From positions 608,001 through 672,000 of the forward strand of contig OZ252243.1 in assembly GCA_965249555.1 (NCBI GenBank): 64,000 nucleotides of DNA, written 5' to 3'. Under the pieces are notes generated by a model. That model worked only from the letters and a program-made list of their open reading frames with translations. It was not told the DNA's origin and did not search any database. The position numbers were made by a program, and so were the translations under genes. How positions within the stretch are numbered: the stretch's first letter is position 1; every line of letters begins with the position of its first letter. The stretch comes from Nitrosopumilus sp. Lineage in GTDB: Archaea > Thermoproteota > Nitrososphaeria > Nitrososphaerales > Nitrosopumilaceae. Shown piece after piece: positions 24,972-60,768 of this stretch.

Positions 24972-25946
24972 ATGAAATTTTTAGATGAAGATAGATTATT
25001 AGCAGAAGTAGAGTTAGAACCAACACAGGGTTCACGTTTCCAACCAACAGGATTCCCATCATTAGGATCTGCAGAATTCACAACTGTGGATAACGAAGGC
25101 AAAAATATTAACTCACTTTTAGTAGAATCTACACAATCAATGGCAAACAGATTAGAAGTTGTTTGTATGAATGATACAAAAACTGAACTTGTAGAAACAC
25201 TTTCTGATTTACCTGTAATAAAATTAAATGATTCAAATGGGAATTTTATAACAAATTCCATACTTGAAGCACATCGCATGAATTCATCATACCTACTAAA
25301 AGGAGAAAAAGGTAAATTGCTTCATAAGATATCAACCGATCTAGACATAACGGATAACAAAACACATGTTCCAAATATTTCAAAATTTGCAGAATTTGTT
25401 TTCAAATATGATACAAACTCCATTTTACACGGATTGTTTTTAGCTAACTCTGACATAGCAGGTGGTAGATACAAACTTACTCGTTCTCTTTCCTCATTTA
25501 TTGAAGCATCAAATATCAAAGTCAGTGTAAGTGGAGGAGTAAAGCTTGATCACATTGATCCAAAAGGTGGTGAAGGTGGAGCAGAAAAAGGATACGGGCA
25601 CATACCATACTCTAGAACAGAATACACAGCAGAATCAATAAAGGCATACTTTAGTATAGATTTGTCACTTATTCGTTCATATGGTCTATCTAATGTTGCA
25701 AATGAATTTCTATTGACATTTGCAATGTGGAAGATTCAATCTTTTCTTAAAACAGGACTACGACTTCGCACTGCATGTGATCTGAAAGTAAAAAATACCT
25801 TGGCTGTAACGTATCCAAACAACGTAACCATTCCAAGTCTAGATGAATTAGATACAGACTTGAGAAACAGTATAAAAAAATGTAAAAATGAAGGACTTTT
25901 TTGTACGGATCCGATAATCGTAGAACATATAGAGACAAAAAAGTAA
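24972..25946 (+). CDS. csb1: Type I-G Cas7 (Csb1)
   Basis: RFQPTGFP, LLVESTQSMANRLE, LEAHR and LRLRTACDL motifs. Confidence 0.93.
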   Translation: MKFLDEDRLLAEVELEPTQGSRFQPTGFPSLGSAEFTTVDNEGKNINSLLVESTQSMANRLEVVCMNDTKTELVETLSDLPVIKLNDSNGNFITNSILEAHRMNSSYLLKGEKGKLLHKISTDLDITDNKTHVPNISKFAEFVFKYDTNSILHGLFLANSDIAGGRYKLTRSLSSFIEASNIKVSVSGGVKLDHIDPKGGEGGAEKGYGHIPYSRTEYTAESIKAYFSIDLSLIRSYGLSNVANEFLLTFAMWKIQSFLKTGLRLRTACDLKVKNTLAVTYPNNVTIPSLDELDTDLRNSIKKCKNEGLFCTDPIIVEHIETKK

Positions 25947-25956
25947 TGGAACCAAA

Positions 25957-29782: not shown

Positions 29783-31865
29783 GATAACACTTGAGTGCAC
29801 ATCAACGTTACTATCAGACTATTTCAAAGCTCTAGGCATATTTCGAATCATGACAGAACAAAGCGATTCTAATATTACAGCATATTGGAGATATGATAAA
29901 TTTGTTTTGGAAACAAGCATGAGTGAAGAAGAAATTTTGGAGTTTATTTTAAAACAATACAAGCCGACGCCTATAATCACACCGTGGAGTTATAACAAAT
30001 ACATAAAAACAAAAGCATCAATCAAAACAAAATTAGATGCAAAAGATGATAGGTTTGAATCATATCGTACGGTAATACAAGAAATAGACAAAATTAATGA
30101 AATGTTCTGCAAGATTTTAAATCTAAATGAAATGAAAAAAGATACCATAACTAAAAAAACAAAGTTGTTATTTTTGCAACTATGTAGAAATAATTTTCCA
30201 GATGAAGCATTATCTTGGCTAGATGTAAATGTTGTGCTAGATGGAACAGATGCAAAATTTGCACCAATTACAGGATCGGGTGGAAATGACGGTAATTTTG
30301 ATATGGCTGAAAACTTTGTCAAGTATCTAATAGAGATGTTTGATCATAATGAAGAATCCAAAAACTTGCTGAAAGAATCACTCTTTGGAGGATCAAGTAA
30401 ATTGGAAGAAACAACTATGATAGGTCACAACCCAGATGGGAATAGTAGTGCAACATCAGGACAAGGTTTTGAAGGTAGATCACTGTCAAACAAGTGGGAT
30501 TACATACTGATGTTAGAAGGAATAATCTCGTTTGCAGGAAATCTGGCTAGACGTCAATCTCAAGGGAAAGGGAAAGCAGTATTTCCATTTACAACAGATG
30601 GCTCACATGTTGGCTATGCAACTGCATCAGATGATGAAAGGGATATCAGAGGTGAGATATGGTTGCCAATATGGAATAATCCTGCCACGTATAGAGAGAT
30701 CGCACATATGTTTAGTGAAGGACGGGTTCAGCTTAATGGAAAACAAGCTGGGACAGGAACAGAGTTTGCACGTGCCATAGTTAGTTTAGGTGTGGAAAGA
30801 GGGATATCGGCATTTCAAAGATTCAGTATTGTGCAAAGAAAAGGAGACGCATATTATTACATCAATGCAGGTAAAATACACACCGCAGATGAATCTGCAG
30901 TTTATTTATTAAGTGAGTTGGATAATTGGTATAATCCAATTTATCAAAAGAGCCAATCAAAAGAGAGTCCAGTGTCGATAAAACGGCATGTCAGAAATTT
31001 TGAAAACGAAGTGATGGAATTTTGCAAATATAGAAAAAAAGAACATCTCTTAAAAATAATGATTCAGGTTGGAAAGATAGAAAAACAGACATCATTGAGC
31101 AAAGAATTAAACCCATTACAGGAACTATCTGCGCAGTGGCTTGATGAGAGCTATGACAATTCAGTGGAATTTAGACTGGCAGCATCCATTGCATCAATAA
31201 AATCAGATAACAACGTAGGAGGAATACGAGAAAACTTGGAAGATATACAATATGGAGAAAGATGGGAACATAAAAAAGAATCAACAACATCTGTGTGGAA
31301 AGAAAATGATGATCTATTAAGGAATATGGGTCGTGTATTGCAAAGACGTGGAATAGATGGTAAAATAAAATCATTGGATGCCATACCAATTAAGGGGATC
31401 ATACCTGCAAGAATGGAGGATATTATAAAATTTCTCAGAGGAGAAGTAGATATGAGAAAAATAAATGACCTAGTTCTTCCGTTATCCATGATATCAATAA
31501 ATCAAAAGACAGAATATCCTTGGAAATCTATGAATAATGATGATATTTACGATATGCCAATACCAGAAGCATATATCATAATGAAGTTGATATGTCCTCC
31601 AGATAGAGATGAAAAAATCCCATACGACACATCAATACTAAATATGTTACATGCAGGAAGATTTGATGATGCTTATGCAAAAACAGCATACATACTACAT
31701 TCACACATGCGATCACCATTAAAATATTCAAAAATAAACGGCATGCCTAAAATATTGATTTCAGATATCATTAAAAAAAATATAATGGCGTCACTATTGT
31801 TTCCAATTTCAAAACATGATAGACAGAAAATGTTGCGTATGGTTACAGTTCAACAAAATTCATAG
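29775..31865 (+). CDS. csx17: Type I-G Cas8 (Csx17/Cas8g)
   Basis: YFKALG, YKPTPIITPW, GSGGNDG and GEIWLPIW motifs. Confidence 0.9.
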   Translation: MTRITLECTSTLLSDYFKALGIFRIMTEQSDSNITAYWRYDKFVLETSMSEEEILEFILKQYKPTPIITPWSYNKYIKTKASIKTKLDAKDDRFESYRTVIQEIDKINEMFCKILNLNEMKKDTITKKTKLLFLQLCRNNFPDEALSWLDVNVVLDGTDAKFAPITGSGGNDGNFDMAENFVKYLIEMFDHNEESKNLLKESLFGGSSKLEETTMIGHNPDGNSSATSGQGFEGRSLSNKWDYILMLEGIISFAGNLARRQSQGKGKAVFPFTTDGSHVGYATASDDERDIRGEIWLPIWNNPATYREIAHMFSEGRVQLNGKQAGTGTEFARAIVSLGVERGISAFQRFSIVQRKGDAYYYINAGKIHTADESAVYLLSELDNWYNPIYQKSQSKESPVSIKRHVRNFENEVMEFCKYRKKEHLLKIMIQVGKIEKQTSLSKELNPLQELSAQWLDESYDNSVEFRLAASIASIKSDNNVGGIRENLEDIQYGERWEHKKESTTSVWKENDDLLRNMGRVLQRRGIDGKIKSLDAIPIKGIIPARMEDIIKFLRGEVDMRKINDLVLPLSMISINQKTEYPWKSMNNDDIYDMPIPEAYIIMKLICPPDRDEKIPYDTSILNMLHAGRFDDAYAKTAYILHSHMRSPLKYSKINGMPKILISDIIKKNIMASLLFPISKHDRQKMLRMVTVQQNS

Positions 31866-31945
31866 ACAGAAATAGAGTTACAATATAAAGATTCAACATT
31901 TTTACAAGTTGATGAATTTTATAGATTTACAGACTTGTTAAGCAA

Positions 31946-34900
31946 TCTTCAATGAAGCCATAATTTTTTGTTATGGCAATCAGTGTAGATACTTTGTTCC
32001 ACATATCAACTCTACTAGGCTTCAAGAGAGTTGTAACTTTATCGTTACAGAAATTTGGTGGTCATGTGCCATATCAGAACGCCCTGATGTTATGCTTCAA
32101 TGGGGCTGTAACTTTATCGTTACAGAAATTTGAGAATAAATCCAGTAATAAATGGATTACCAGTTCCAGCGCTTCAATGGGGCTGTAACTTTATCGTTAC
32201 AGAAATTTTATGCGCTATGTGTTATGTTTGTCATACTCATGTAGCTTCAATGGGGCTGTAACTTTATCGTTACAGAAATTTCACAAATTGTAATACAATA
32301 AGGGTACTATAACGGTTGCTTCAATGGGGCTGTAACTTTATCGTTACAGAAATTTTATGCGCTATGTGTTATGTTTGTCATACTCATGTAGCTTCAATGG
32401 GGCTGTAACTTTATCGTTACAGAAATCACTCGGATGTTGTTTTCCCTGCACGTCTGATATACAGAGCTTCAATGGGGCTGTAACTTTACCGTTACAGAAA
32501 TTGGCTCCAGCTTTGGTAATCTCAAGAATGATCTCGCCACGCTTCAATGGGGCTGTAACTTTATCGTTACAGAAATCACTCGGATGTTGTTTTCCCTGCA
32601 CGTCTGATATACAGAGCTTCAATGGGGCTGTAACTTTACCGTTACAGAAATTGGCTCCAGCTTTGGTAATCTCAAGAATGATCTCGCCACGCTTCAATGG
32701 GGCTGTAACTTTATCGTTACAGAAATGGCTTAATCAAAGATGTTATCTCAATGTCCGTATATTATCAACTTCAATGGGGCTGTAACTTTATCGTTACAGA
32801 AATATAAAGAGGAAGCTGAGGGTTTCACAATCGATTTTCTAGCTTCAATGGGGCTGTAACTTTATCGTTACAGAAATTTTGTGAGGTTTGAAGTTTGAAG
32901 TGGACAGTTTCCCAAGCTTCAATGGGGCTGTAACTTTATCGTTACAGAAATTCTGTTATCTTTGATTTTTAGTTTGATTTTATCTTCTTCAGCTTCAATG
33001 GGGCTGTAACTTTATCGTTACAGAAATCTAAAAATGTTTTGACTGCTGTCGGCGTGTAAGCCGGGCTTCAATGGGGCTGTAACTTTATCGTTACAGAAAT
33101 TTCCATCAGCTCCAGTTTCATCTTTACCAAATGCTTTGCTTCAATGGGGCTGTAACTTTATCGTTACAGAAATTTCTCCAGCCGGATATTGATAACCGTG
33201 AGCCTTCATGCTTCAATGGGGCTGTAACTTTATCGTTACAGAAATTTCGAAAAGCCAATTAGTAAACTTGGTACGACTCACCTGCTTCAATGGGGCTGTA
33301 ACTTTATCGTTACAGAAATTGTAAGTTACAGGATAACGCAATAAATCTATGCTCAGCTTCAATGGGGCTGTAACTTTATCGTTACAGAAATACTTTATCA
33401 CGATTACGGTTTAGATAGTCAAGGACAAGCTTCAATGGGGCTGTAACTTTATCGTTACAGAAATAAATGAATCAGCGAATAGTTCGACATCAAATTTCTT
33501 GCTTCAATGGGGCTGTAACTTTATCGTTACAGAAATCTGATGATAACATCTTTGCTGAATTTCATGTTCATGCTGCTTCAATGGGGCTGTAACTTTATCG
33601 TTACAGAAATCATGAGTGATTTGTTGTCCTCGAGTTGGTCCTCCATGTGCTTCAATGGGGCTGTAACTTTATCGTTACAGAAATGATACAACTTGAAAAT
33701 ATTGCAAAAGCAGAAGCACGCTTCAATGGGGCTGTAACTTTATCGTTACAGAAATTGGAAAATCAAGCTTCAAAATTAATGGCTACAACATCGCTTCAAT
33801 GGGGCTGTAACTTTATCGTTACAGAAATTTCCCTATGGACCTTCCTTTGCAGGTCCTTGTATTTCTCAGCTTCAATGGGGCTGTAACTTTATCGTTACAG
33901 AAATGCGGCAGCCAATCCCGACGGCTTGGCTTCCATCATAGACGCTTCAATGGGGCTGTAACTTTATCGTTACAGAAATGTAGTAATTGCATTCATCTGC
34001 ATTTGACTTGCACCACCGCTTCAATGGGGCTGTAACTTTATCGTTACAGAAATTTCGGCTTTGAAAATTGCTAATGCTTTAGATTTTTTGCTTCAATGGG
34101 GCTGTAACTTTATCGTTACAGAAATCTTGATGTCTCAAACAGCAAGAGTTCAAACTAGATTAGCTTCAATGGGGCTGTAACTTTATCGTTACAGAAATAT
34201 AGAACGGTTATCAGGTCAAAGAGCGTTAAAAGTAGCTTCAATGGGGCTGTAACTTTATCGTTACAGAAATTTGGATAGCGATTGGATAGCTATGACAAAG
34301 CAACTGGAAGCTTCAATGGGGCTGTAACTTTATCGTTACAGAAATCTGCATCAGTAAGAAATAGTAGATTGTCTACAGCCGTTGCTTCAATGGGGCTGTA
34401 ACTTTATCGTTACAGAAATGATGGATCAGGCTATACCAGGGGTATTGGGTCAGGGATGCTTCAATGGGGCTGTAACTTTATCGTTACAGAAATTTAGTGT
34501 TACTGAAAATTCTAGGTTAGGATGGTCCAAAGCTTCAATGGGGCTGTAACTTTATCGTTACAGAAATTTTGAAAAAGAAACTTTGAAAGAAGACAAAGAG
34601 AGAGCGCTTCAATGGGGCTGTAACTTTATCGTTACAGAAATCTTAGGTTGTAGAACTCAAAGAACAGCTGACATTATCGCTTCAATGGGGCTGTAACTTT
34701 ATCGTTACAGAAATGTCAGAATTAGTTTGAGTAAAAACACTACCTTTTCTCGCTTCAATGGGGCTGTAACTTTATCGTTACAGAAATTTAGCATACAAGA
34801 GATAGCCTCCGATACCAACCGCTCCTGGCTTCAATGGGGCTGTAACTTTATCGTTACAGAAATTTCTCAAAATGAAAAAAATTGTTAACAATGTCCAAGC

Positions 34901-35538
34901 TTCAATGGGGCTGTAACTTTATCGTTACAGAAATTTTGAGCCTTTCAATTACACTAGTTAAAATTTTAGATGCTTCAATGGGGCTGTAACTTTATCGTTA
35001 CAGAAATCACCAAGTCGTGCAATACCTCCACCAGGTCCTCCTGGCTTCAATGGGGCTGTAACTTTATCGTTACAGAAATTTGATTGTTTCGACAAGATTC
35101 CAACTGACACCTAGATCCTGGAGGCTTCAATGGGGCTGTAACTTTATCGTTACAGAAATTAGGATATCAGCGCCACGACTTAGGCCCGCTGCTAAATTTG
35201 TGCTTCAATGGGGCTGTAACTTTATCGTTACAGAAATATGGTATACAAGCAACATATCCGTACGAAGTGTGTATTGTCTACGCTTCAATGGGGCTGTAAC
35301 TTTATCGTTACAGAAATATCGAATTTAGAAAACTTGTCGCAATTAGAACATTTATGCTTCAATGGGGCTGTAACTTTATCGTTACAGAAATTTTTATAGA
35401 GCTATAAAGCCTAATATAAACCCTAAATGCTTCAATGGGGCTGTAACTTTATCGTTACAGAAATTTCTGTTTGTTCTTTTTTAGCCTTGTCAAGACTACT
35501 TTGCTTCAATGGGGCTGTAACTTTATCGTTACAGAAAT
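31946..35538 (-). CRISPR. Type I-G array: 49 repeats (two degenerate at the left, trailer end) and 48 spacers of 35-44 nt
   Basis: 36-bp repeat ATTTCTGTAACGATAAAGTTACAGCCCCATTGAAGC (minus strand) with CTGTAAC/GTTACAG stem; orientation from the ATTGAAGC 3' end, degenerate left repeats and AT-rich leader next to cas2. Confidence 0.98.
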
Positions 35539-35690
35539 GGGGTCATTTTCTCTAAAACCGTTATCATGTTTTTGTTTCTAGTTGTTTTTCAATTGTTATC
35601 TGACGATTCAAGCAAATCATAGACATTGCTGTGGTATGATATTTTTTTCATATATATTATATCTGCGAGAGTATTATCATACTTACCTTG
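35539..35690 (-). promoter_or_regulatory. CRISPR leader
   Basis: AT-rich non-coding stretch between cas2 and the first perfect repeat, with a TATA-like element. Confidence 0.7.
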
Positions 35691-35691
35691 A

Positions 35692-35801
35692 CTTGTAACC
35701 CATCGCATTTTCTTTGCCCTATATCACTTGCGCAAAGCTCTTGATAGGGCTTCTTGTCAGGCATCTTGTAACCCATCGCATTTTCTTTGCCCTATATCAC
35801 T
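35692..35801. repeat. 37-bp direct duplication flanking a 36-nt insert
   Basis: CTTGTAACCCATCGCATTTTCTTTGCCCTATATCACT at 35692-35728 and 35765-35801. Confidence 0.95.
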
Positions 35802-36079
35802 ACGGATCTCTCCCTTTCCGTATCCATTTGTGCCCCTATTACTGATATTCTTTCTTTACTTTTATTTAAGGAGCCAAGATTAATTATCAAAATTTTATCT
35901 TCAACCATATTCATTATATCCTCTAACTCTTCTTTCATAATTATTATTTCCTTGTAGTTAAGATCACACATAAACACAGAATATTGTACAGGTTCCCCAT
36001 ACCCCTTCATCTTTTTATGTATCTGTATCAATCGTTGCGGATCATGTATATCGTAACATACAAAGTATCTATTGCGCAA
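35792..36079 (-). CDS. cas2: Cas2
   Basis: YFVCYDIHDP.RL...GYGEPVQYSVF; TTG start assumed. Confidence 0.93.
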   Translation of the reverse strand: MRNRYFVCYDIHDPQRLIQIHKKMKGYGEPVQYSVFMCDLNYKEIIIMKEELEDIMNMVEDKILIINLGSLNKSKERISVIGAQMDTERERSVVI

Positions 36080-36083
36080 ACCT

Positions 36084-37769
36084 TCATCTTGTCCTAAATG
36101 CAGGATATGTTGGAATCTCTCCAAGAATATGTCTGGCAAGTAATCTTGTTTGAGTTTCCATTATGCGTTTATAGCTGGCAGCATAACCCAAAAGTGGATG
36201 AATAACAACAGAATCCATACGTCTCTCATATGCAGTTATCACTGTAGAACGCCCTCTATTGGTAAGGTTTGTTCCAAAGTCGGTCTTTATCAAATCTGAT
36301 TCATTGATTTCACCGTTATTGATAAGCGTAATACATGTAGAATCTGCTACAATTGGTCTGAATTCCTCGATCATATCAAGTGCAAGTGCGGGTTTCCCAT
36401 ATTTTGGCATATGAAGAAATCCCAGATAGGGATCAAGACCTACTCTACTAACTGTAATCATTGCATTCCTTGTCAACATTGCATATAGAAATGACATAAT
36501 TGCATTAACTGGATCCTTTGGAGGTCTTCTGTTTCTTCCATTAAAATCAAAAGCCGTTGATTCAGATTTTATCATGCCATTAAATTCTGAAAAATATATG
36601 CGTGCAGCCATTCCCTCTATTCCAAGAAGAGTATCATATTGTTTTACAGTACATGCACGTTGTGCAAGTATGTTCATCTTGTGTATCTTATCTATAGGGG
36701 GAGATTTGTGGTTTCTACGTAGCATTGTCATGCAATTTTTTATTTTTCCAAACACCATCTGACGAGCTATCCCAATGGATGCATTTTTAACATCATATTT
36801 TTTATGCTGTTTAATTCGCAGTTCTATATTTTTATGTGAAAGTCCTGTAGTAATACCCGTAAACCATCCTCCATATGTCATGTAACAGATAGGAATATTT
36901 CGCTTGCTTAACTCCCTTATTGCTTGTGTTGTGATCTGGATATTTCCAAATAGTGTAATTTCTGAAATGTCTATCAATCTAATCTTCTTTATTATTGTAT
37001 CTTTTAATTTTACATGAATGCAATCATTTGATTTTGTAATATGTGCTCCCTGTTCCTGTATGTATACTGGTATGGTGTCATTTCTTATTGGATACATTCT
37101 GCGTATCTGGTCCTTGTTTATTTGATGAGTCTCATCTGATAACAAATTGACTTCATCAGGTAGACATATTCCCACAAGGGAACATCTTGGACATTTCGGA
37201 CTGTCAACCAACGGAGCAGGTATTGTATATGACTTTGCCATTTCTTTCATCTCTTTGATCATCTGTAATGTTTTTTTTACTGTTTGATCATCTAGATTAA
37301 TTTCTATTCTTTGCTTTGATGCAATATAATAAACAAAACCCTTTGTACATGTGTATCCATTTGCACGTAGTAAAAGTCCTTGAGCACATACTTGTATGAT
37401 GTGATCATCATATGTTCTGTTAGGAGTATTGGGAGTGCTGCCACGTTTGTATTCTATTGGTGTTGCAACGTTTCCATCTAATTCAAGTAGATCTGTTTTA
37501 GATATCAATCCAAGCTCTGTATCAGACAAAGTAACTGATCTGGCATGAATCTTTTCTACTGTGATATTATCTTTATCGGTCTTTTGTTCAAGCATTTTTC
37601 CTCCTGACGGTTTGTCTACATTTCTATGCTGATATTTGCCGTCTATCACATCTTTGTTGGATTCAAATTCCCCTTGAACCCATTCCATATATGCAAGTCG
37701 TTTACAATATACGAATTGTGTTAGCATTCTTACTGGTATAAGATTTGAATTAACACTTGATGTACTCAT
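36084..37769 (-). CDS. cas1: Cas4-Cas1 fusion
   Basis: YCKR, PIEYKRG and CPRCSLVGIC (Cas4); GIEG.AAR.YF, RNRRPPKDPVNA and DMIEEFRP (Cas1). Confidence 0.95.
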   Translation of the reverse strand: MSTSSVNSNLIPVRMLTQFVYCKRLAYMEWVQGEFESNKDVIDGKYQHRNVDKPSGGKMLEQKTDKDNITVEKIHARSVTLSDTELGLISKTDLLELDGNVATPIEYKRGSTPNTPNRTYDDHIIQVCAQGLLLRANGYTCTKGFVYYIASKQRIEINLDDQTVKKTLQMIKEMKEMAKSYTIPAPLVDSPKCPRCSLVGICLPDEVNLLSDETHQINKDQIRRMYPIRNDTIPVYIQEQGAHITKSNDCIHVKLKDTIIKKIRLIDISEITLFGNIQITTQAIRELSKRNIPICYMTYGGWFTGITTGLSHKNIELRIKQHKKYDVKNASIGIARQMVFGKIKNCMTMLRRNHKSPPIDKIHKMNILAQRACTVKQYDTLLGIEGMAARIYFSEFNGMIKSESTAFDFNGRNRRPPKDPVNAIMSFLYAMLTRNAMITVSRVGLDPYLGFLHMPKYGKPALALDMIEEFRPIVADSTCITLINNGEINESDLIKTDFGTNLTNRGRSTVITAYERRMDSVVIHPLLGYAASYKRIMETQTRLLARHILGEIPTYPAFRTR

Positions 37770-38112: not shown

Positions 38113-38637
38113 TTATACAAACTTTCTAGCCTTCATTCTCTTGATTTTTTCTTGCAACAAAATACATCCTTGGATGAGAGTTTCAGGTCTAGGCGGACAG
38201 CCAGGAACATAGACATCGACTGGAATCACTCCGTCAATTCCCGGAAGTACATTGTATGAATCAAAATACAACCCCCCAGTAATTGCACAAGCTCCCATAG
38301 CAATTACATACTTTGGTTCTGGCATTTGATCATAAACTAGTCTGAGACGTGGTGCCATTTTTCTTGTAATAGTTCCTTGAACAACAATTAGATCACATTG
38401 TCTAAGTGATCCAAATGCCTCAATGATACCAAATCTTTCAACATCATATCTAGGACTTGATGCTGCACCAAATTCAACACTGCAGCAAGCCGTTTCAATG
38501 TGGACAGGCCAGAGTGACCAAATTCTACCCCAATTGATGGCATAGCCCAATGGTTTGCCGATTGCCCGCTCTAAAATGTCCCCTAGCTTTCCTACAAAGA
38601 CATTTGCATTTTCTGGCGTTACTAAATCATTAAGCAA
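38113..38637 (-). CDS. nuoB: NADH-quinone oxidoreductase subunit B
   Basis: TACCSVE, MGACAITGG and VPGCPPRPE motifs. Confidence 0.96.
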   Translation of the reverse strand: MLNDLVTPENANVFVGKLGDILERAIGKPLGYAINWGRIWSLWPVHIETACCSVEFGAASSPRYDVERFGIIEAFGSLRQCDLIVVQGTITRKMAPRLRLVYDQMPEPKYVIAMGACAITGGLYFDSYNVLPGIDGVIPVDVYVPGCPPRPETLIQGCILLQEKIKRMKARKFV

Positions 38638-39102: not shown

Positions 39103-40025
39103 TCCCATACGAAATCGTCTCCAACCCTACTGAGGACACTTACTAGCGTGCTTTGCTGAATCAGGACATCTCAGATATGCTTTGCATCTTATACTTTCGT
39201 TGTGTCAGTTCATGATTTTGTGTACGATACACTTTCAGAATTTGTTAGCATGTACCCGGATTATTGCAAGCATCCGGTCTTGCAGCTGCCACCTTTGCCT
39301 TTTGTTTTCCTCTTCTCTTTGCAATTCTGAAATAGAATGATTCCATTCTTTCATCAAATCGTACTATAGTATTTGCAGCCTCTACCATTGCGTTACGTAA
39401 CCATGCAGAACCCCTCTTTGTTATTCCGCCTCCTCGGTGCACATCTGCGCTGTCCCTGTGCGATGGTGCAAGTCCTGCATATGAGACTAGTTTTTCTGCT
39501 GTTGCAAATCTGCTGATGTCAACTATCTCTGAAATTATTGTCAATGCCGTGACATAGTTTATTCCAGGAATGGTCATTAGCAGTCTTGTTTTCTCATCCT
39601 CATTGCTAATTGTTGCAATCTTTATCTCAATTGTGTTGATCTGTTTTTGCATCATATCTATGCTGTCAAGATATGCATCCATTGCCATTCTGTCAACCTC
39701 ACTCAGATTAATTTCATGCAACCATCGTACTCCTTTTTGCGAGAATGTCTTTGTGGGTGTAATCATATTTTGCAAGTATTGCATAAATCATGTTTTTGTG
39801 TTTTGATACATTTCGCACGCGATTCAGTCTGGTTCTTACCAGACTGTATAGGTCTCTATAGTATTTTTCTGGTACGAATGAGCTGTACACCATGTCTGCT
39901 CTTAGCAAGTCTGCCAATACGTCTGAATCAAGTTTGTCGTTTTTTATCTTTGCCTGTGCAATTATCTTGGTCTTTGCAGGATGTGCGAGAACTGTATCAA
40001 TTCCATGGTCTTCTAGTGTGTCATG
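39103..40025 (-). mobile_element. IS110-family element, frameshifted and 5'-truncated transposase plus 3' non-coding end
   Basis: LMTIPGI, SYAGLAP..RDS and ITKRGSAWLR motifs; KIKNDKLDS..LADLLR fragment; end sequence repeated at 56507-56645. Confidence 0.85.
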
Positions 40026-46819: not shown

Positions 46820-48307
46820 CTAATTCAACCATTCCCCACCTCTAATTCCCCATACATTATAATTTGCTTGAGCCAAATCTCCTGCTTCATTTAGTGTTGT
46901 TGGACCTATTGCTCCTATGTAATTCTCTGCAATTCCTGGGAGTGCAGCTTTAATCACACTAACATCACTGCTTTGGGTTTCAAGCATTGCCAGTCCAATT
47001 AACCACACGGCATCATATGAAGAATGCACAAATACGTTAGGAACCATGCCAAGTACTTCAGTTATATGAGATTGCACTTTGTTATATTTTGGGTTTTCTG
47101 TAATTGCAAACGCAACTGATGTAAATTGAACATTAGTTGAAAATTCTAGTGCTATTGGATCATCAATCAGACTGTGGTCTTTTGTGGTAGCACCTGGTCC
47201 GAACCATCTTACATCATGTAATATGTCATATTCGGATGCTGATTGAGTAAACTGTAGAATTTCCGCAAATCCCAAAAACATGACACCAACTTTGTCTGCT
47301 CCATATTCATCAACATGTTCTTGTACTTGTTGAGCTAATAGGGAAACTGATACAGAAAATTCTGGAGTCTCCGGATTGTAGCGAATAGGTTCGCCTACTA
47401 TTCCCCCTCTTTTGATAAATGAATCAGTTGTAGACTTACTTAGACCATCACCCCATGTGTCTCCCCTATATACTGGAACCAATACATCGATTCCTTCATG
47501 TTTCATTAGCTTTGCAAGTGCAGGTCCTTGCTTAGAGTCATCTGGAATTAGACGAAATACACTATCATTTGTAATAGCTAATGCAGGTGCAGTAGAACAA
47601 CAGCTAACTAACAACATGTTGTTAGAGTCCGAATAACCTTTCATGTGGCTAACATTGGAACTAGTTTCAGGTCCTATTACAATTCCAATTCCTTTGGCAT
47701 AAAGTGATGTTAGTTTTTCTAGTGCAGTTACTGGATTAGTTGCAGAATCTTCTGTAATCATTTTGAGATGCCATGGGGCATCAATGTCTTGCAAATGTTT
47801 GTTAAACTCGGATACCCCAAACTTTGAGCCCTCATTGCTTCCTAGTCCATGAGTTGACCAATCACCTGTTAGTGGAACGATTGCTCCGATGGTTACTTCT
47901 CCGGACAGTCCTGCTGTTTCTTCCATCATTGGATCTTTCATCATATCATCCTCCATCATTGGATCTTTCATCATATCATCCTCCATCATTGGATCTTTCA
48001 TCATATCATCCTCCATCATTGGATCTTTCATCATATCATCCTCCATCATTGGATCTTTCATCATATCATCCTCCATCATTGGATCTTTCATCATATCATC
48101 CTCCATCATTGGATCTTTCATCATATCATCCTCCATCATTGGATCTTTCATCATATCATCCTCCATCATTGGATCTTTCATCATATCATCCTCCATCATT
48201 GTTTCATCTACATCCATAACTTCTGTATCCGTACCTAATACTCCATAAGCAACACCGATAATAATTAGAATAACTACAACACCAATTCCTATTTGTTTAG
48301 TACTCAT
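46820..48307 (-). CDS. ABC substrate-binding protein (LivJ-like) with Met-rich repeat; probable 3' frameshift
   Basis: N-terminal anchor; IGAIVPLTG, IGPETSS and FRLIPDD motifs. Confidence 0.85.
   Translation of the reverse strand: MSTKQIGIGVVVILIIIGVAYGVLGTDTEVMDVDETMMEDDMMKDPMMEDDMMKDPMMEDDMMKDPMMEDDMMKDPMMEDDMMKDPMMEDDMMKDPMMEDDMMKDPMMEDDMMKDPMMEDDMMKDPMMEETAGLSGEVTIGAIVPLTGDWSTHGLGSNEGSKFGVSEFNKHLQDIDAPWHLKMITEDSATNPVTALEKLTSLYAKGIGIVIGPETSSNVSHMKGYSDSNNMLLVSCCSTAPALAITNDSVFRLIPDDSKQGPALAKLMKHEGIDVLVPVYRGDTWGDGLSKSTTDSFIKRGGIVGEPIRYNPETPEFSVSVSLLAQQVQEHVDEYGADKVGVMFLGFAEILQFTQSASEYDILHDVRWFGPGATTKDHSLIDDPIALEFSTNVQFTSVAFAITENPKYNKVQSHITEVLGMVPNVFVHSSYDAVWLIGLAMLETQSSDVSVIKAALPGIAENYIGAIGPTTLNEAGDLAQANYNVWGIRGGEWLN
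47922..48200 (-). repeat. Perfect 30-bp tandem repeat, 9 copies, encoding MMEDDMMKDP
   Basis: Unit CTCCATCATTGGATCTTTCATCATATCATC. Confidence 0.97.
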
Positions 48308-52467: not shown

Positions 52468-52535
52468 AGATTTTAACGTGCATAACGAATGCACGTTAAG
52501 ATTTTAACGTGCATAACGAATGCACGTTAAGATTT
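52468..52535. repeat. Tandem 31-bp duplication of an 11-5-11 palindrome
   Basis: TTAACGTGCAT-AACGA-ATGCACGTTAA twice. Confidence 0.9.
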
Positions 52536-52550
52536 AAAAATAATGAATAT

Positions 52551-53669
52551 ATGAATAATTCATTGGAATTAAAACAGAATCAACAAGAATCTACGAAATC
52601 GACAACTCAACAAATTCCTAAAGGTAAAAAGATCATAAGATATTCATTGAATCAATCTCTAAAGATCGCAAAATCAATAGAAGACAACAATGCTGGAAAT
52701 CCATATAATCGAATAGATCTATGCAAATCATTAGAATTAAGTCCAAATGGATCCGTCTTTCGAACATTACTTGTTGCATCTAATAGGTATGGTTTAACAA
52801 AAGGTAACTATAATGCAGATAAAATTGAATTAACTGAATTAGGAAGTTCCATAGTTGCACCAATTGATGATGAGAATCAACTACAAGCAATTAAACAAGT
52901 TCTGAAAACCAACATATTGGGAGAAATAATTGATCATTATAACAATAAACAAATTCCAAGAGTTGAATTACTCAAAAATACATTAAAAAAAGAATTCCAT
53001 GTTGAACATGATGATGTAGATTTATGCTATAATGTTTTTATGTCTAATGCAAAAGAATATAACTTAATTCAGAAAATTAAAGGAAAACAATATCTTAAAT
53101 TTGATGTTTCGATTAAACTACAAAATCCAGAAGAAAAATTTGAATCATTAGAGCAATTAGAAAAAGAAGAAACAATAACAAATGATAATATTGCAATTAT
53201 ACCAACAACAGTAACAACTACATCTAAAGTATTTCTTTCTCACAGTAAGAATATGACAATATTGGATCAGATAAAAAAAGTCCTAACATTTGGAAATTTT
53301 GAATTTGAAATTGCAGTAGAAGAAGAAACAACAGCAATTCCAATACCTGAAAAAATATTTGGTTTAATGCGTAAATGTAACTGTGCCATCATAAATGTCA
53401 GTGCAGATGAACAGGAAAAAAGAGAAGATGGAAGTTATGGTATAAATCAGAATGTACTAATTGAAATTGGAGCTGCATTTTTGCAATACAATAAAAAAGT
53501 TATTTTGTTAGTAGATAAAAGAGTAAAGTTACCTAGTAATCTACAAGGATTGTATAAATCAGAATATGAGGGTGAAGAATTAAGCTGGGATACGGGTATG
53601 AAACTTCAAGAAGCGTTATCAAGTTTTCGTCAATCTGGATATGTGGAATCAAAAAGTTCTAGTCAATAA
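52551..53669 (+). CDS. Protein with C-terminal TIR-like nucleotide-binding domain and N-terminal HTH-like region
   Basis: KVFLSHSK, NQNVLIEIG and LPSNLQGL motifs; start uncertain. Confidence 0.8.
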   Translation: MNNSLELKQNQQESTKSTTQQIPKGKKIIRYSLNQSLKIAKSIEDNNAGNPYNRIDLCKSLELSPNGSVFRTLLVASNRYGLTKGNYNADKIELTELGSSIVAPIDDENQLQAIKQVLKTNILGEIIDHYNNKQIPRVELLKNTLKKEFHVEHDDVDLCYNVFMSNAKEYNLIQKIKGKQYLKFDVSIKLQNPEEKFESLEQLEKEETITNDNIAIIPTTVTTTSKVFLSHSKNMTILDQIKKVLTFGNFEFEIAVEEETTAIPIPEKIFGLMRKCNCAIINVSADEQEKREDGSYGINQNVLIEIGAAFLQYNKKVILLVDKRVKLPSNLQGLYKSEYEGEELSWDTGMKLQEALSSFRQSGYVESKSSSQ

Positions 53670-55404: not shown

Positions 55405-56292
55405 GTGATATGTAGTATATTCATGGTAAGTATAGTAAAAGAGGGAGGATTTTACTATATGAAACATCACACTAGAGACAAAGAAAAGAGAAGATATCTA
55501 GGCAAAACCATACCAAAGGATATCGAGCAACAAAAAAAGACGTTTCTCAAGGAATTTTACTGTAAAGTGTGGGATGGTAAAACACGAAAAATTATCGCAA
55601 GTTACAAAAAAGACACAGTGGGAATTCCACGATCAATAAAACTAAAAAATTTTGAGAGTTTTGCAATATCATTTACATACAACACGCAAAGAATAGAGGG
55701 TTCAAGTCTCACTCGTGCAGACACAATAAACTTGCTAGTACATGGTGTCACTTCTGCAAAAAAATCAAAGATAGATGCCATTGAGACTCTGAAACACTAT
55801 GAGCTATTTATCAGACTAGTAACATCAAAGAAGCTTGAAAGAATCAGAAAAAAAGATGTCCTAAAATGGCACAGAGAAATATTTGATCAAACAAAAATTG
55901 GAGAAGCTGGGGATATCAGACATCACAGGGTAGGAGTAATAACTAGTAACGAGGTAGAATTTACGCCAGTTCCACAGATACCAAAAAAACTAAAAGAATT
56001 TTTTGATTGGCTAAACAGATATGATAAAAAGGCAAATCCTGTAGAATTTGCAGCCCTCACTCATTACAAGCTTGTCTCAATTCACCCCTTTGCTGATGGA
56101 AATGGCAGGATCTCAAGACTAGTCATGAATTATGTTTTATTCAAATATGATTGTCCACTTGTGCAGATTGAAAGCAGGGACAAGAGGTCATATTTCAAGT
56201 CATTAGAAAAATCCCAGACAAACAATAATGAGATGTATTTTCTAAAGTGGTTTATGAAATATTATATCAAATCCAACAAGAGATATCTATAA
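55405..56292 (+). CDS. Fic-domain protein
   Basis: HPFADGNGRISR catalytic motif; YNTQRIEGS inhibitory helix. Confidence 0.93.
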   Translation: MICSIFMVSIVKEGGFYYMKHHTRDKEKRRYLGKTIPKDIEQQKKTFLKEFYCKVWDGKTRKIIASYKKDTVGIPRSIKLKNFESFAISFTYNTQRIEGSSLTRADTINLLVHGVTSAKKSKIDAIETLKHYELFIRLVTSKKLERIRKKDVLKWHREIFDQTKIGEAGDIRHHRVGVITSNEVEFTPVPQIPKKLKEFFDWLNRYDKKANPVEFAALTHYKLVSIHPFADGNGRISRLVMNYVLFKYDCPLVQIESRDKRSYFKSLEKSQTNNNEMYFLKWFMKYYIKSNKRYL

Positions 56293-57025: not shown

Positions 57026-57135
57026 AGATAATCAGGTGCACAAAATGCCGGTTCTGTGAAGTTATCGTGACCTGAAATATGGATCTTCTAAGGATTCTGC
57101 TAACTAATTTTTATAACTGGTTATTCAATCAAAAA

Positions 57136-57243
57136 CATGAATCTCTGCTTACAGAGCCGCCCCATTGAAGAATTAACTATGTGTGTTACAAAATACAAAA
57201 ATTAGAAATTTCTGAAAGTTTCTACTTTCAGCCCCATTACCGA
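57136..57243 (+). CRISPR. Mini-array (one spacer) related to the type I-G repeat
   Basis: ...GCCCCATTGAAGA, 36-nt spacer, then ATTTCTGAAAGTTTCTACTTTCAGCCCCATT with two compensatory stem pairs. Confidence 0.8.
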
Positions 57244-57247
57244 ACAT

Positions 57248-57340
57248 ACATACTTAATGAATCTATCATAACAAGGATTGAAACTTTGTAGTGAGTTGTA
57301 GAGAATCCAATTTGGAAATCCACTAAAACAAGGATATAAC
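57248..57340 (+). CRISPR. Second mini-array, from a different (...ACAAGGATTGAAAC) repeat family
   Basis: ATCTATCATAACAAGGATTGAAAC, ~20-nt spacer, ATCCACTAAAACAAGGATATAAC. Confidence 0.7.
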
Positions 57341-57424
57341 ATCTCACTACAAACAAATTATTTTCTTGTGCCTGTCAACAAAATCAAGAAATATTTAATA
57401 AAGTAGTTCAATGTTAATTTGAGT

Positions 57425-57538
57425 ATGACAAAAGAAAACACACCAGATTGGAATGATGAAGACCTTGCCAAATGCACAAAATATGATGATGATGTTAAAG
57501 CAGGTACAATGACCTATAGAAGCATAGAGATAAATTAA
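57425..57538 (+). CDS. Small acidic protein (37 aa), putative antitoxin
   Basis: MTKENTPDWNDEDLAKCTKYDDDVKAGTMTYRSIEIN; TATA ~25 nt upstream; precedes the RelE-like ORF. Confidence 0.55.
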   Translation: MTKENTPDWNDEDLAKCTKYDDDVKAGTMTYRSIEIN

Positions 57539-57558
57539 ATCAATTTCTCTCTTTTTTT

Positions 57559-57825
57559 ATGAAAATTTCTAAAATTAAATACAGTAAACAGTTTGATAAA
57601 TTTTTAGAGAATCTGAATGATAAAACTCGTGCAGAACAAATTACTACTGCACTTGAAAACTATGCAAAAGATCCAAATGAATTACCTAGACCAAAAGATT
57701 GCAAACATTATGCAAATAGAGAAAAAGTTGCAATACCTGATGCAAGTGTTGTCGTTTTTTATGATAATTTTGGGAGTTATTGGATTATGATTGATGGTTC
57801 TGAATTTACTCAACGAGTAACTTAG
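57559..57825 (+). CDS. RelE/ParE-like protein
   Basis: IKYSKQFDKFLENL...EQI..AL....DP size and pattern; divergent C-terminal half. Confidence 0.55.
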   Translation: MKISKIKYSKQFDKFLENLNDKTRAEQITTALENYAKDPNELPRPKDCKHYANREKVAIPDASVVVFYDNFGSYWIMIDGSEFTQRVT

Positions 57826-57838
57826 TTACTTGTATTGA

Positions 57839-58009
57839 TTAATCCTTAGTTACAACAATTCCTTTACCACGAATGACAAACTTTATCCTTTCAGGATCTT
57901 TGAGAAGTTCTATTATTGGTTTTGGTACTCTGCATATTTTACTGTTAGCTCCATCAAATGTAAGTTTTACAGAAAACTCTCTCTGATCTTTTTTCCATCT
58001 TGGCAACAT
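57839..58009 (-). CDS. Small AbrB-like DNA-binding protein divergent from the transposase
   Basis: MLPRWKKDQREFSVKL...CRVPKPIIELL...IKFVI; ATACGTACG twice in the shared intergenic region. Confidence 0.7.
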   Translation of the reverse strand: MLPRWKKDQREFSVKLTFDGANSKICRVPKPIIELLKDPERIKFVIRGKGIVVTKD

Positions 58010-58090
58010 ACAAAATTATCTTTACATGTATAAAAATCATACGTACGCTAATAAGTTATGTATAAATATACGTACGTGTAATATAATTAC

Positions 58091-59215
58091 ATGAACCCAA
58101 GAACTCAAAGAGCCCAACAGATGATGAAAAATCCAGACTGTGCAGTACAATTCACTCCTGACAAATTCAGTGTAAGATCACAAAGCATTCCACAAATTCA
58201 TTATATCATATCAAAGACTGACAACGGATTAATCTGTGACTGTCCAGATCACACCAAAAGAAAATCAGACTGCAAACATATCAAGATTGTATTGGAGCTA
58301 ATTAAGAAAAATCAAGGTGATGTCCAAGAGTTTAGAATGATGGATAGATCACTACTCAAATTATGCAAATACTGTGATTCAGGCAGATTGATCAAAAAAG
58401 GAATCAAAAAAAACAAGAAAGGAAATACCCAGCAATACAAATGCCAAGATTGTAAAAAGAGATTCACCTTGAATCTTGGCTTTGAGAAGATGAGATATGA
58501 TTCAACTCTAATCACTAGAGCCTTGCAGTTGTACTTTGCAGGAATGAGTGTAAGAGATATTGCAGATGCTTTTGAGCAGGAGGACATCAAAGTATCTTAT
58601 AGGGCAGTCTACGGATGAGTTGAAAAATACTCCAAGATGACCAGTAATTATCTCAAGGGTATAGTACCAAGAGTATCTGAAACTTGGAGAACAGATGAAA
58701 TCTTTATGAAGATAAAAGGCAATATGAAACTACAGTATTCAATGCTTGACCACTCCACTAGATTTATGATCACTCAATATGTGGTAAACACAAAAGGCAC
58801 TGAAAACGTCACACCGATGTTTAGGGAAGCAATGATGATTGCAGACAAAATCCCAACTACTCTGATTTCTGATGGTGCAGCCAACTTTCACTAGGCATGG
58901 AAGGATAATTACAAGGCACGAAATTTCTTGTGGAAAGATACTAACCATATCAGACACATACACCTCAAGGGTGACAAAAATAATAACAGAATGGAAAGAT
59001 TGAATGGTACTATAAGAGACAGAGAAGTAGCATACAGGGGGATAAAGAAGATGAACAGTCCATTATTTGCAGGATTCCAAACATTCTATAATTTCTCAAA
59101 AAAGCATGGTGGCATAGGCAAGAAGACTTCAGCAGAATTAGCTGGTATTCTAGTAGATGGAAATAACAAGTGGAAAACTCTGATCCAAAACGCCTCACTT
59201 AGTCAATACCAATAA
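58091..59215 (+). pseudogene. IS6-family DDE transposase with SWIM and Zn-ribbon domains; two in-frame stops
   Basis: CDCPDH..CKH, WRTDE, LISDG and NNNRMERLNG motifs; three same-frame ORFs separated by TGA 58616 and TAG 58892. Confidence 0.9.
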
Positions 59216-59326
59216 TCATCATTTTAAGAATTTTAGAACTTGTAAATTTTATGTAGATTTTTCAATCCTTAGAAGATCGTGTTTTGTGTCTGGGTCACGA
59301 TAACTTCACAGAACCACAAATTCAAT

Positions 59327-60768
59327 GTATGTATCAACCTTCACGCACAAATCAATATCATTACACAAAAAGATCTAAGATCAACTAAATCATCATACAA
59401 AACATGTCAGGTTGTGGTCATGAGAAAATCATCATACAGCTACAAGCAGAGATAAAACAACTGCAAGAAAAGTTAAAACAACTACCGCTAATCATAGAAA
59501 ATCTCATAGAATCAAACAAGGAACTGCAAAAAAAGCTGTCATATTATGAGAATGCACACTCTCCGCCATCAAAGAATTCCCTTGAATGGAGAAAGCAAAA
59601 AAGACAACACAGACAGCCAGGCAAATCAAGACGTGGTGGAATAGCAGGACACGTTGGCAAGACACAGAAATTCAGACCAACTAGCACCAAACACCACAGA
59701 TCAGATGCATGTCCCAAATGCGGTAGTGAAAATATTCATCAAACCAAAACCTGCAAAAGGATAATGGTTGAGATTCCTCCACCAACACCCTACGGTATAA
59801 CTGAGCATGTTTTGAATCAATACATCTGCATGGACTGTTCTGATAATTTTCAAACCACGGGAAACCTTCCACTACATGGATGTTTTGATGGTTCAGTGAT
59901 ACGTGAGGTCGTCTCACTGTTCTCAAAGAGATTGACATACGATGCTATCAGAACCACACTCTATGAAAGATATGGATTAGAAATCAGCAATACAACCGTA
60001 CAATCCATTCTTCGCAACGGTAGTGTGATGTTAGAGTCATTTTACAATACAATCCACAGCGAAATCGTGACTGAAAATATTCTCGGAATCGATGAGACAG
60101 GATTTTCAATTGATGGAAATACTGGATGGATGTGGGTTGCAAGAAGCAAGACTAGTGCACAGTATGCCTTGGAGTACAGCAGAGGTGCCAATGTTCTAAA
60201 AAAGTACTGGAAGAAATTCAAAGGAACCCTAGTGTCTGACGGATATGCTCCGTACAGGACAGTATTTTGTGATAACACAAAGCAGAGATGCACCGCACAC
60301 CTGCAGCGCGATGCCAAATATCTGGCAATAAAATCACAGGACAAAAAGGCAAGGATTCTATACGAGAAACTCTCAGATATGCTAGGTCATGCCAGGGTTT
60401 GGAGTGTAGGTAATCGTCATACAAAACGGCGGGAAACGTACAGGGATGATTTACTAAAACAGCTAGACCGTATCATTGCACGATATTTGAAAGGTGATAT
60501 GGAGATGGTTCAGTTTGGCAAGAAGCTAAAGACTGCAAGGAACAGCATGTTTACGTTTGTCATGGATGGCGATGTCCCGTCAACTAACAATGATGCAGAG
60601 AATTCCATTCGAAAGTGCGTGATGCAGAGGAATGTTCGCGGGCAGATGAAGAGTGATCAGGGCATGAGGATGATCTCAGTCTTTCTCACATGCTTTGAGA
60701 CATGGAGAATAAGGGAATTGAACATGTTTTCTGAGATGGCAAAATACATCTAAGTGCTTGATACATAC
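59327..60768 (+). mobile_element. IS66-family (single-ORF, ISBst12-like) element
   Basis: 11-bp IR GTATGTATCAA; 8-bp TSD AATTCAAT at 59319-59326 and 60769-60776. Confidence 0.93.
59404..60753 (+). CDS. IS66 transposase
   Basis: NAHSPPS, IDETG, LVSDGY, QRCTAHLQR and TNNDAENSIR motifs. Confidence 0.95.
   Translation: MSGCGHEKIIIQLQAEIKQLQEKLKQLPLIIENLIESNKELQKKLSYYENAHSPPSKNSLEWRKQKRQHRQPGKSRRGGIAGHVGKTQKFRPTSTKHHRSDACPKCGSENIHQTKTCKRIMVEIPPPTPYGITEHVLNQYICMDCSDNFQTTGNLPLHGCFDGSVIREVVSLFSKRLTYDAIRTTLYERYGLEISNTTVQSILRNGSVMLESFYNTIHSEIVTENILGIDETGFSIDGNTGWMWVARSKTSAQYALEYSRGANVLKKYWKKFKGTLVSDGYAPYRTVFCDNTKQRCTAHLQRDAKYLAIKSQDKKARILYEKLSDMLGHARVWSVGNRHTKRRETYRDDLLKQLDRIIARYLKGDMEMVQFGKKLKTARNSMFTFVMDGDVPSTNNDAENSIRKCVMQRNVRGQMKSDQGMRMISVFLTCFETWRIRELNMFSEMAKYI

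Follow-up and report, generated by a model that had tools for sequence, protein, structure and literature searches.

What use could an insertion sequence make of CRISPR repeats and spacers? The question is raised by the left end of an IS6-family element at positions 57050-59315 of a stretch of 64,000 nucleotides from Nitrosopumilus sp. (contig OZ252243.1, positions 608,001 to 672,000 of the forward strand). This whole stretch is referred to below as the window, and coordinates are those of the window unless another genome is named. An earlier note on this DNA had described in the left end a single CRISPR RNA (crRNA)-like unit that fits the type I-G Cascade of the host and was proposed to target the promoter of passenger genes within the element. 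Our results uphold the unit as IS6-borne and fitting type I-G, place its target elsewhere, and add a second, type I-B-like unit that adjoins the first and is absent from that note. The explanation that we favor, and regard as probable, is that the left end encodes guides resembling CreA, CreR and Cracr RNAs, which would direct type I-G or type I-B Cascade to non-cleaving sites in cis.

An IS6-family element carries a type I-G-like unit in its left end

The crRNA-like units are carried by an IS6-family insertion sequence (IS) of 2,266 bp that is bounded by inverted repeats. Its left end (57050-57096, plus strand) consists of a terminal inverted repeat (57050-57072) and a subterminal 15-nt repeat (57082-57096), and its right end (59264-59315, minus strand) holds the corresponding repeats of 15 nt (59264-59278) and 23 nt (59293-59315); both pairs are perfect between the two ends. 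The terminal repeats start with GGTTCTG, in agreement with the IS6 pattern GG(T/C)NCTG, and the transposase gene (58091-59215, plus strand) encodes a DDE_Tnp_IS240 domain (E value of 2.2e-7), which together confirm that the unit lies inside an IS6 left end. In the window copy, the transposase gene is broken by two in-frame stops (58616-58618 and 58892-58894). The copy in another genome, designated G276, has an intact frame of 390 amino acids (aa), and a related IS6 copy in genome G413 matches NCBIfam transpos_IS6. No target-site direct repeat was seen around the window element. The left end and the transposase gene are separated by about 1 kb of passenger DNA, and none of the other IS6 copies in the host genome has that passenger DNA or the crRNA-like units.

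The host genome, a single contig of 2.23 Mb with a G+C content of about 34%, harbors a complete type I-G CRISPR-Cas system (24963-37769) with Cas7g, Csb2 (a Cas5-Cas6 fusion), Cas3g and Cas8g/Csx17 on the plus strand, an array, and a Cas4-Cas1 fusion on the minus strand. All five protein matches exceed the curated NCBIfam cut-offs, so that the type I-G Cascade attributed to the host is indeed encoded. The array (about 32094-35538) has 48 repeats, 44 of them exact, 3 with one mismatch and 1 with four mismatches, and its crRNA sense is on the minus strand. In this sense, the repeat consists of ATTT, a 7-bp stem, CCCC and then ATTGAAGC. According to the part of a type I-G study covered here, cleavage by Csb2 4 nt 3' of the 7-bp stem produces a handle of 8 nt, every sixth base of the crRNA is unavailable for pairing, and earlier in vivo work is cited for a TTN protospacer-adjacent motif (PAM). 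The 47 host spacers gave no convincing self-match in their own genome (the best was an exact stretch of 21 nt, and most were of 13 to 17 nt), and the whole array gave zero matches in a phage collection; because the host spacers thus provided no protospacers, the TTN PAM was taken from the literature on other type I-G systems.

The left end displays the parts of such a system in miniature. A TATA-like box, TTTTTATAA (57108-57116, plus strand), precedes a pseudo-array, and we infer that it is the promoter of this array (P1), with a start site near 57136-57140. The first repeat, psiR1 (57136-57171, plus strand), is degenerate, with a weak hairpin (57143-57156), CCCC (57160-57163) and the handle ATTGAAGA (57164-57171). 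The sequence GCCCCATTGAAGA at 57159-57171 matches the end of the array repeat at 12 of 13 nt. In addition, GCCCCATTGAA occurs 50 times in the genome, with 47 copies in the main array, 2 in a mini-array and 1 in the unit described here (unit 1). Because unit 1 is the only place outside the arrays where GCCCCATTGAA occurs, the unit is well beyond chance.

A pseudo-spacer of 36 nt, psiS1 (57172-57207, plus strand), is followed by the second repeat, psiR2 (57208-57243, plus strand), which is composed of ATTT, a stem (57212-57218/57225-57231), CCCC (57232-57235) and a decayed handle, ATTACCGA. Its identity to the array repeat is 24/36 (12 mismatches), a level reached by one other site in the genome. 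The ATTT, the 7-bp stem and CCCCATT are retained, and the stem reads CTGAAAG/CTTTCAG instead of the canonical CTGTAAC/GTTACAG, a difference of two compensatory pairs. The predicted fold of psiR2 (-8.5 kcal/mol; z score of -5.2) compares with -8.2 kcal/mol for a true repeat, and for either sequence none of 200 shuffles folded as well. The spacing of stem and CCCC in psiR2 corresponds to the geometry of Csb2 cleavage. The TATA-like element, the handle-containing motif, the 36-nt spacer and the repeat variant with its compensatory stem are therefore all present where they had been described. Since the handle, the 7-bp stem with CCCC, and a TTN PAM (see below) agree with the published rules for type I-G, we consider unit 1 to be matched to the type I-G system of the host.

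The type I-G-like pseudo-spacer partly matches a site directly downstream of its own unit

The 36 nt of psiS1 were scanned against both strands of the genome with every sixth position ignored. The best non-self match is a partial protospacer, T1 (57243-57261, minus strand), which reads 5'-TTC followed by ATTAAGTATGTATGTT. It runs on the minus strand from 57258 to 57243, and its PAM, TTC, is the complement of 57259-57261. T1 starts 15 nt past psiR2 on the strand opposite to the guide. Seed positions 1-16 of psiS1 can pair with it at positions 1-5, 7-11 and 13-16, with mismatches only at positions 6 and 12, so that all 14 of the 14 paired positions in the first 16 nt match (14 of 15 over the first 17 nt).

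In order to estimate how often such an arrangement arises, we counted the start positions with an inverted 14-position match plus a TTN flank within 36 to 170 nt, counting both strands. Three of 4,460,478 start positions qualified, one of them being the base right after the handle of unit 1, and the chance of such an adjacent target is about 1 in a million per position. Among 58 unrelated stretches with the handle-plus-ATTAA pattern, examined as a control, the best nearby inverted match has 4 to 8 core mismatches.

We also looked for targets elsewhere. Between 23000 and 38500, a region that includes the host cas genes, the best sites reach 12/14; there are two of them, both inside cas coding regions and with seed mismatches, and no cas promoter was found as a target at the host cas genes. 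No CreA or CreR with the psiS1 seed was found in the host genome. When a phage collection was searched with the unit, the best result was a 24-nt match at chance level (E value of 0.3). The PAM-plus-seed pattern is present in 49 viral contigs, in each of which at most 7 of the 20 PAM-distal bases match, and we read these as chance occurrences; the full pattern of the unit was found in 0 viral contigs.

A small-gene cargo and the proposed passenger-promoter target

The passenger DNA contains a pair of small open reading frames (ORFs) at 57425-57825 on the plus strand, encoding 37 aa (57425-57538) and 88 aa (57559-57825). The 88-aa protein has four close homologs and a ParE_toxin match below threshold (E value of 0.049; 14.6 bits versus a cut-off of 23), which is the sole basis of the antitoxin-RelE label given to these genes. 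A structural model (predicted local distance difference test [pLDDT] of 55) has an order of helices and strands compatible with a ParE/RelE fold, at low confidence. The toxin-antitoxin-like nature of the cargo, as suggested by sequence, is thus a lead, not a finding. The small ORFs differ among the four homologous loci described below; in one of them, on metagenome contig L128, the two ORFs gave no Pfam match, and we take them to be HicB/HicA-like. A 56-aa ORF (57839-58009, minus strand) is convergent with the cargo and is also found in the G377 locus (see below), with no Pfam match. The passenger promoter together with the 37-aa ORF (57377-57579) has a second copy with 88% identity elsewhere in the host genome, at G000:C1:1990347-1990540 (L004/L141). 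That copy lies against a further IS6-type inverted repeat, at 1990537, and is not accompanied by a pseudo-array.

The target put forward in the earlier note was the TATA box of this passenger operon (57391-57402), where psiS1 would guide type I-G Cascade to repress the operon. The TTT at 57400-57402 does fit a TTN PAM, and positions 1-5, 7-9, 11 and 13 match. This amounts, however, to a score of only 10/14, seed position 10 is mismatched, and the site is equalled or beaten by ten others in the same 4 kb (four unrelated sites score 11 and six others score 10), which is chance level. Nor is there a conserved equivalent: in about 0.5 kb around each of three homologous loci, which takes in their cargo promoters, no site other than T1 scores at least 12, and in the G377 locus no site other than T1 scores at least 10. 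Repression of the passenger operon through this site is therefore highly improbable.

A second unit resembles type I-B repeats of congeners

Downstream of unit 1 we identified a further repeat, psiR-A (57248-57284, plus strand), with the handle ATTGAAAC (57277-57284). Of its 25 3'-terminal nucleotides (57260-57284), 24 (96%) match the 3' part of a 37-nt type I-B repeat that forms long arrays in congeners (G015, G029, G413 and others). In G413, this repeat adjoins type I-B cas genes for Cas7/Csh2, Cas5b, Cas3, Cas1 and Cas4. The host genome contains no array of the 37-nt repeat and no match to the type I-B Cas7 family. A short pseudo-spacer, psiS2 (57285-57305, plus strand; seed TTTGTAGTGAGTTGT), is followed by a degenerate type I-B-like repeat, psiR-B (57306-57340, plus strand), which has 14 mismatches in an ungapped scan and, when compared with the consensus by eye, has a 5' mini-palindrome TCCAA-T-TTGGA in place of GTCAT-A-ATGAC. 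Directly after psiR-B lies a partial protospacer of psiS2, T2 (57339-57356, minus strand), which reads 5'-TTG followed by TTTGTAGTGAGATGT; with TTG as the PAM, it runs from 57353 to 57339 and matches psiS2 at positions 1-15 except for position 12. Unit 2 therefore repeats the layout of unit 1 with repeats of another subtype.

No promoter motif is evident in T1 or T2. A conserved minus-strand peptide was considered as the product of this region and rejected: the 46-aa ORF at 57342-57202 has no counterpart in G276 or G377, and no minus-strand ORF is conserved across the unit. Separately, we note that the type I-B cas genes of G413 have an IS6-family transposase gene (G413:C1:1447966-1449087; L131:9966-11087) about 1.6 kb upstream of them.

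Guides, targets and repeat stems change together among homologous loci

A search of 401 genomes of the family revealed two homologous loci, in the genomes designated G276 and G377, and one exact-pattern scan of metagenome contigs revealed a fourth locus, L128. With the G276 version as the query, all 151 genomes of the genus yielded no match at an E value of <1e-8 beyond G276 and the window. The order in all four loci is IS6 left end, TTTTTATAA, type I-G unit, target, type I-B unit, target, and small ORFs, with the unit inside the IS6 left end in each of the four. The TATA region, TTTTTATA, is invariant in the three loci that were aligned, and TTTTTATAA is also present in L128. Overall, the four loci are 70 to 75% alike in DNA.

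In unit 1, the PAM is TTC in all four loci. Over the first 17 nt, mismatches between guide and target are found at positions 6 and 12 (7 of the 8 such cells), as well as at position 17 in the window; at the other positions among 1-16, none of 56 cells is non-Watson-Crick, and no G-U pair occurs elsewhere. Seed positions 8, 9, 14 and 16 differ between loci, and the target has changed along each time. Four of the 17 seed/target pairs have changed on both sides, and 0 of 500 shuffles reached the observed covariation score. The stem of psiR2 also differs in each locus and always pairs (CTGAAAG, CCAAGT, CTAGAAGT and CCAAAT), with 3 of 5 aligned pairs changed on both sides among the four loci. Variation at these stem positions is also seen among natural type I-G arrays of the genus Nitrosopumilus. 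Repeat-like stems are thus kept in the other copies through compensatory changes. Covariation of guide and target among copies of the element, which had been thought of for the passenger promoter, was seen for T1 directly 3' of the unit and not for that promoter. In unit 2, the spacer sequences are unrelated among loci, and three of the four loci have a matching adjacent site, with the PAMs TTG (window), TTA (G276) and TTA (L128) and single mismatches at positions 12, 12 and 8, respectively. In G377, the handle and the target of unit 2 are both decayed.

Could these patterns reflect a neutral, decaying scrap of a CRISPR array that the element picked up and that has no function? The degenerate repeats, the broken transposase gene of the window copy, the lack of a partner system for unit 2 in the host and the decay of unit 2 in G377 would all be expected in that case. 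Loci that are only 70 to 75% alike have nevertheless retained, by means of compensatory changes, the stems, CCCC, the handle, the PAM and the pairing of guide with target, and an adjacent target is expected at only about 1 in a million positions genome-wide. We therefore regard a functionless remnant as very unlikely.

A second possibility is that Cascade plays no part and that the seed and the target are the arms of hairpins in a left-end transcript, which would end, stabilize or process the RNA, with the repeats as leftovers. A 237-nt transcript has a predicted fold of -50.2 kcal/mol (z score of -4.3), a value reached by none of 200 shuffles, and it is these very arms that pair in it; the second hairpin is followed by a T-rich run, and compensatory changes are also typical of a conserved RNA helix. 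A helix, however, would not account for a set of features that follow the rules of crRNA recognition: within positions 1-16, the non-Watson-Crick cells are confined to guide positions 6 and 12 (7/8 versus 0/56), TTC (unit 1) or TTR (unit 2) always flanks the arm on the correct side, the arm always starts at the first base after the crRNA handle, and the enclosed repeat keeps the Csb2 stem and CCCC. Judged from these sequences, the mismatch pattern and the fixed PAM argue for recognition of DNA by Cascade over a mere RNA hairpin, and we consider an explanation by RNA structure without Cascade quite unlikely.

A proposed mechanism for guide-directed Cascade binding in cis

Starting from the anatomy, the statistics and the guide-target covariation, the favored explanation of guides acting in cis on Cascade would predict transcription, processing, Cascade binding and a regulated output along the following lines. 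The conserved TATA box would drive one transcript over both units. Csb2 of the host would cut unit 1 at both degenerate repeats, giving a product in which the 8-nt handle ATTGAAGA is followed by the 36 nt of the pseudo-spacer and a hairpin at the 3' end; in favor of this step, Csb2 is encoded by both the host and G377. Once it carried this RNA, type I-G Cascade would bind TTC-flanked T1 right after its own gene, pairing over the PAM-proximal 16 nt. Such pairing would be too short for cutting by Cas3, and Cascade would stay on the DNA as a block; binding without Cas3 cutting is suggested because the pairing stops after 14 to 15 positions, as judged from the established behavior of type I systems. 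Unit 2 would be the same device for type I-B Cascade, which is present in congeners and not in the window host.

What the bound complexes would regulate is a guess, the most likely output being that transcripts from the left-end promoter are stopped on their way to the right. Whether the toxin-antitoxin-like cargo and the remainder of the unit are expressed would then hinge on the presence of matching, free Cascade, and production of the units themselves could be limited in the same way. We favor a rightward block on grounds of strand: left-end transcripts have the plus strand as their non-template strand, and this is where the guide would pair. In a study of type I-E Cascade, targets inside a transcribed region repress, by blocking elongation, only on the non-template strand; this comparison holds if "targeted" means paired, which that study does not state outright. 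The sequences of the targets vary freely, which makes an overlap with a TATA box unlikely.

Several observations weigh against this mechanism. The psiR1 hairpin is weak (-4.7 kcal/mol; 51 of 200 shuffles were as good) and is 7 nt away from the expected cut instead of 4 nt. The targets overlap no recognizable promoter, each cargo, by reading of the sequences, apparently has its own TATA about 27 to 30 nt before its start codon, and a T-rich run after T2 may end the transcript anyway. As the host has no type I-B system, unit 2 has no partner there, and in L128 the mismatch in unit 2 falls at seed position 8. Neither Csb2 nor type I-B Cas7 was found in G276, a 20-contig metagenome-assembled genome in which these genes may be unassembled, and yet this genome has a well-kept copy of the element with an intact transposase frame. 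The occurrence of the element in G276 without these proteins counts weakly against a module of lethal Cascade dependence. In addition, the seed and anti-seed also form an RNA hairpin, so that part of the covariation is equally expected from RNA structure, and the covariation sample is four loci that are partly related by descent (three share some history).

The same anatomy could be that of a mobile-element anti-CRISPR decoy in the manner of Cracr or Racr RNAs, in which the units soak up or re-aim Cas7, Csb2 and Cas8, immunity against the IS or its carrier is weakened, and the nearby target merely tunes the decoy level. The units are indeed on a mobile element and not in the cas locus, and two CRISPR subtypes in one array would suit an element that moves between strains. 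A 2026 preprint on Cracrs (10.1101/2024.10.29.618823), in the section covered here, lists 219 candidates for crRNA-like anti-CRISPR genes, which are carried by phages and plasmids and in some cases stacked in arrays. Published Cracrs, however, copy the spacer of a CreA or CreR of their host and are directed at its cas or toxin promoters, whereas psiS1 has no site above 12/14 in or near the cas locus, its covarying partner is inside the IS itself, and the downstream target would be unable to shut off the promoter of the unit. We regard a decoy as unlikely, with the reservation that it overlaps with regulation in cis and the two are not exclusive.

Regulation in cis also raises the possibility, which we put forward tentatively and consider somewhat doubtful, that the IS is a portable two-channel "Cascade sensor," with one guide mimic for each of the two type I subtypes circulating in the genus, each tied to a harmless partial target within the element, that reads free Cascade and switches its own downstream genes, namely the cargo and perhaps transposition. 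If this were true, it would be the first simple transposable element without cas genes to use host CRISPR effectors as transcription factors. Should the underlying mechanism hold, even the smallest mobile elements could plug into host CRISPR machinery for their own regulation, the covariation that leaves positions 6 and 12 free would give evidence from nature on the rules by which Cascade pairs in an uncultured lineage, and the units would be compact natural parts for gene repression by type I-G and type I-B systems.

Genomic surroundings and other pseudo-arrays

The type I-G island (about 14.5 kb; 24963-37769) lies between nuoB (38113-38637) and nuoC (22943-23539) and splits what appears to be a single minus-strand nuo operon into nuoA-B, the island, and nuoC-N (14006-39051). 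An IS110-type fragment (39245-39784) is found just beyond this region. At 47922-48201, a perfect 30-nt tandem repeat (9.3 copies, 100% identity) falls inside an ORF for a 495-aa periplasmic-binding-protein-like product (46820-48307). Upstream of the IS6 element are defense-like genes for a 386-aa protein with a CAP12/Pycsar-type TIR domain (52509-53669; E value of 2.6e-15) and a 295-aa Fic/DOC protein (55405-56292; E value of 2.8e-20), and the element may sit in a defense or mobile-element island. A multi-copy IS66-family element (59324-60753) starts 9 nt past the right end of the IS6 element; roughly its first 75 nt recur, with 94 to 100% identity, at more than 30 genome sites, and its 449-aa transposase frame is intact.

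The mini-array at G000:C1:1884690-1884798 (L140) consists of two perfect type I-G repeats and one 37-nt spacer among small cysteine-rich ORFs, about 1 kb from an IS6 transposase fragment with 74% identity. Neither a partial nor a full target of its spacer was found nearby or in the genome. Another family of composite pseudo-arrays is present in G413, which has both type I-G and type I-B systems, at C1:790360-790560 and 793500-793700 (both L138), 1626150-1626320 (L139) and 1512989. Their order is an I-B-like handle, a spacer, an I-G-like repeat (stem, CCCC and handle), a pseudo-spacer of about 55 nt and a second I-G-like hairpin. The pseudo-spacer has four copies, and no adjacent or genome-wide target of it was recognized.

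Comparison with known crRNA-like regulators and mimics

On the basis of sequence, the anatomy of the IS6 units is most likely that of the crRNA-like regulators CreA and CreR and of the crRNA mimics of mobile elements. A further likeness is to CRISPR-associated transposons with atypical guides, in which, as is proposed for the IS6 unit, an odd guide is flanked by repeats and pairs partially without cutting. Such transposons have an effector of their own, and the guide serves to select an insertion site in the host chromosome, whereas the IS6 element lacks cas genes and carries a guide that matches the element.

The comparisons that follow draw on the parts of the cited sources covered here. The closest parallel to unit 1 is CreA of the CreTA modules of type I-B haloarchaea and others (PMC8501985). 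CreA lets Cascade repress a promoter through seed pairing at positions 1-5 and 7-11 beside a TTC, and mutations at position 6 or 12 are tolerated. As in unit 1, divergent repeat-like flanks surround a pseudo-spacer, partial seed pairing is flanked by TTC with positions 6 and 12 free, and guide and target are side by side in a compact module with predicted non-cleaving binding by Cascade. The two differ in setting and target. CreTA lies in or next to the cas operon, whereas unit 1 with its target (57136-57261) is about 20 kb from the cas genes (which end at 37769) and inside an IS6 element. CreA targets the promoter upstream of creT/creA, whereas T1 is 3' of the guide gene and has no recognizable promoter. 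Pairing extends over 14 to 15 positions in unit 1 compared with 10 in CreA, no counterpart of the RNA toxin CreT was identified at the IS6 element, and unit 1 is of subtype I-G with a type I-B unit in tandem, in contrast to the type I-B and other systems of CreA. CreR (10.1101/2023.03.10.532045) shares with unit 1 a degenerate mini-array, a spacer partly matching nearby DNA and, as predicted for unit 1, self-limiting control via the effector; CreR targets a cas promoter, however, and unit 1 has no such site at the host cas genes.

Cracrs (10.1101/2024.10.29.618823) resemble the IS6 units in being borne by mobile elements and, as is proposed for the IS6 units, in using host Cas proteins and in being stackable in one transcript. 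The reported candidates belong to subtypes V-A, I-F, I-E, I-C and I-B and come from phages (203/219) and plasmids (16/219); the section of the preprint covered contains no Cracr of an insertion sequence or of an archaeon. The units of a Cracr array are said to aim always at variants of a single type, whereas the IS6 array spans types I-G and I-B, and Cracr targets are in the host cas locus, whereas those of the IS6 units are in the element itself. Racrs (PMC10651486) are likewise repeat mimics on mobile elements, but a Racr is a lone repeat without a guide, whereas the IS6 unit has a spacer, a second repeat and a matched, covarying target. In the main text of a mini-array survey (10.1101/2023.03.03.530964), whose discussion mentions the atypical guides of CRISPR-associated transposons, "I-G" has 0 occurrences. 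Among the papers listed by a full-text search of the literature, none describes an IS-borne crRNA-like unit in its title, abstract or the passages covered, although supplementary tables could hold such cases.

Guide-like RNAs that turn CRISPR effectors into repressors are known from cas loci (CreA and CreR) and, more recently, from phages and plasmids (Cracr). The locus described here adds a plain insertion sequence as a carrier, in a marine ammonia-oxidizing archaeon, and the predicted use of type I-G, which is not among the cases reported in the literature covered. It also joins two subtypes in one array, and its targets lie within the element instead of in the promoters of host cas or toxin genes.

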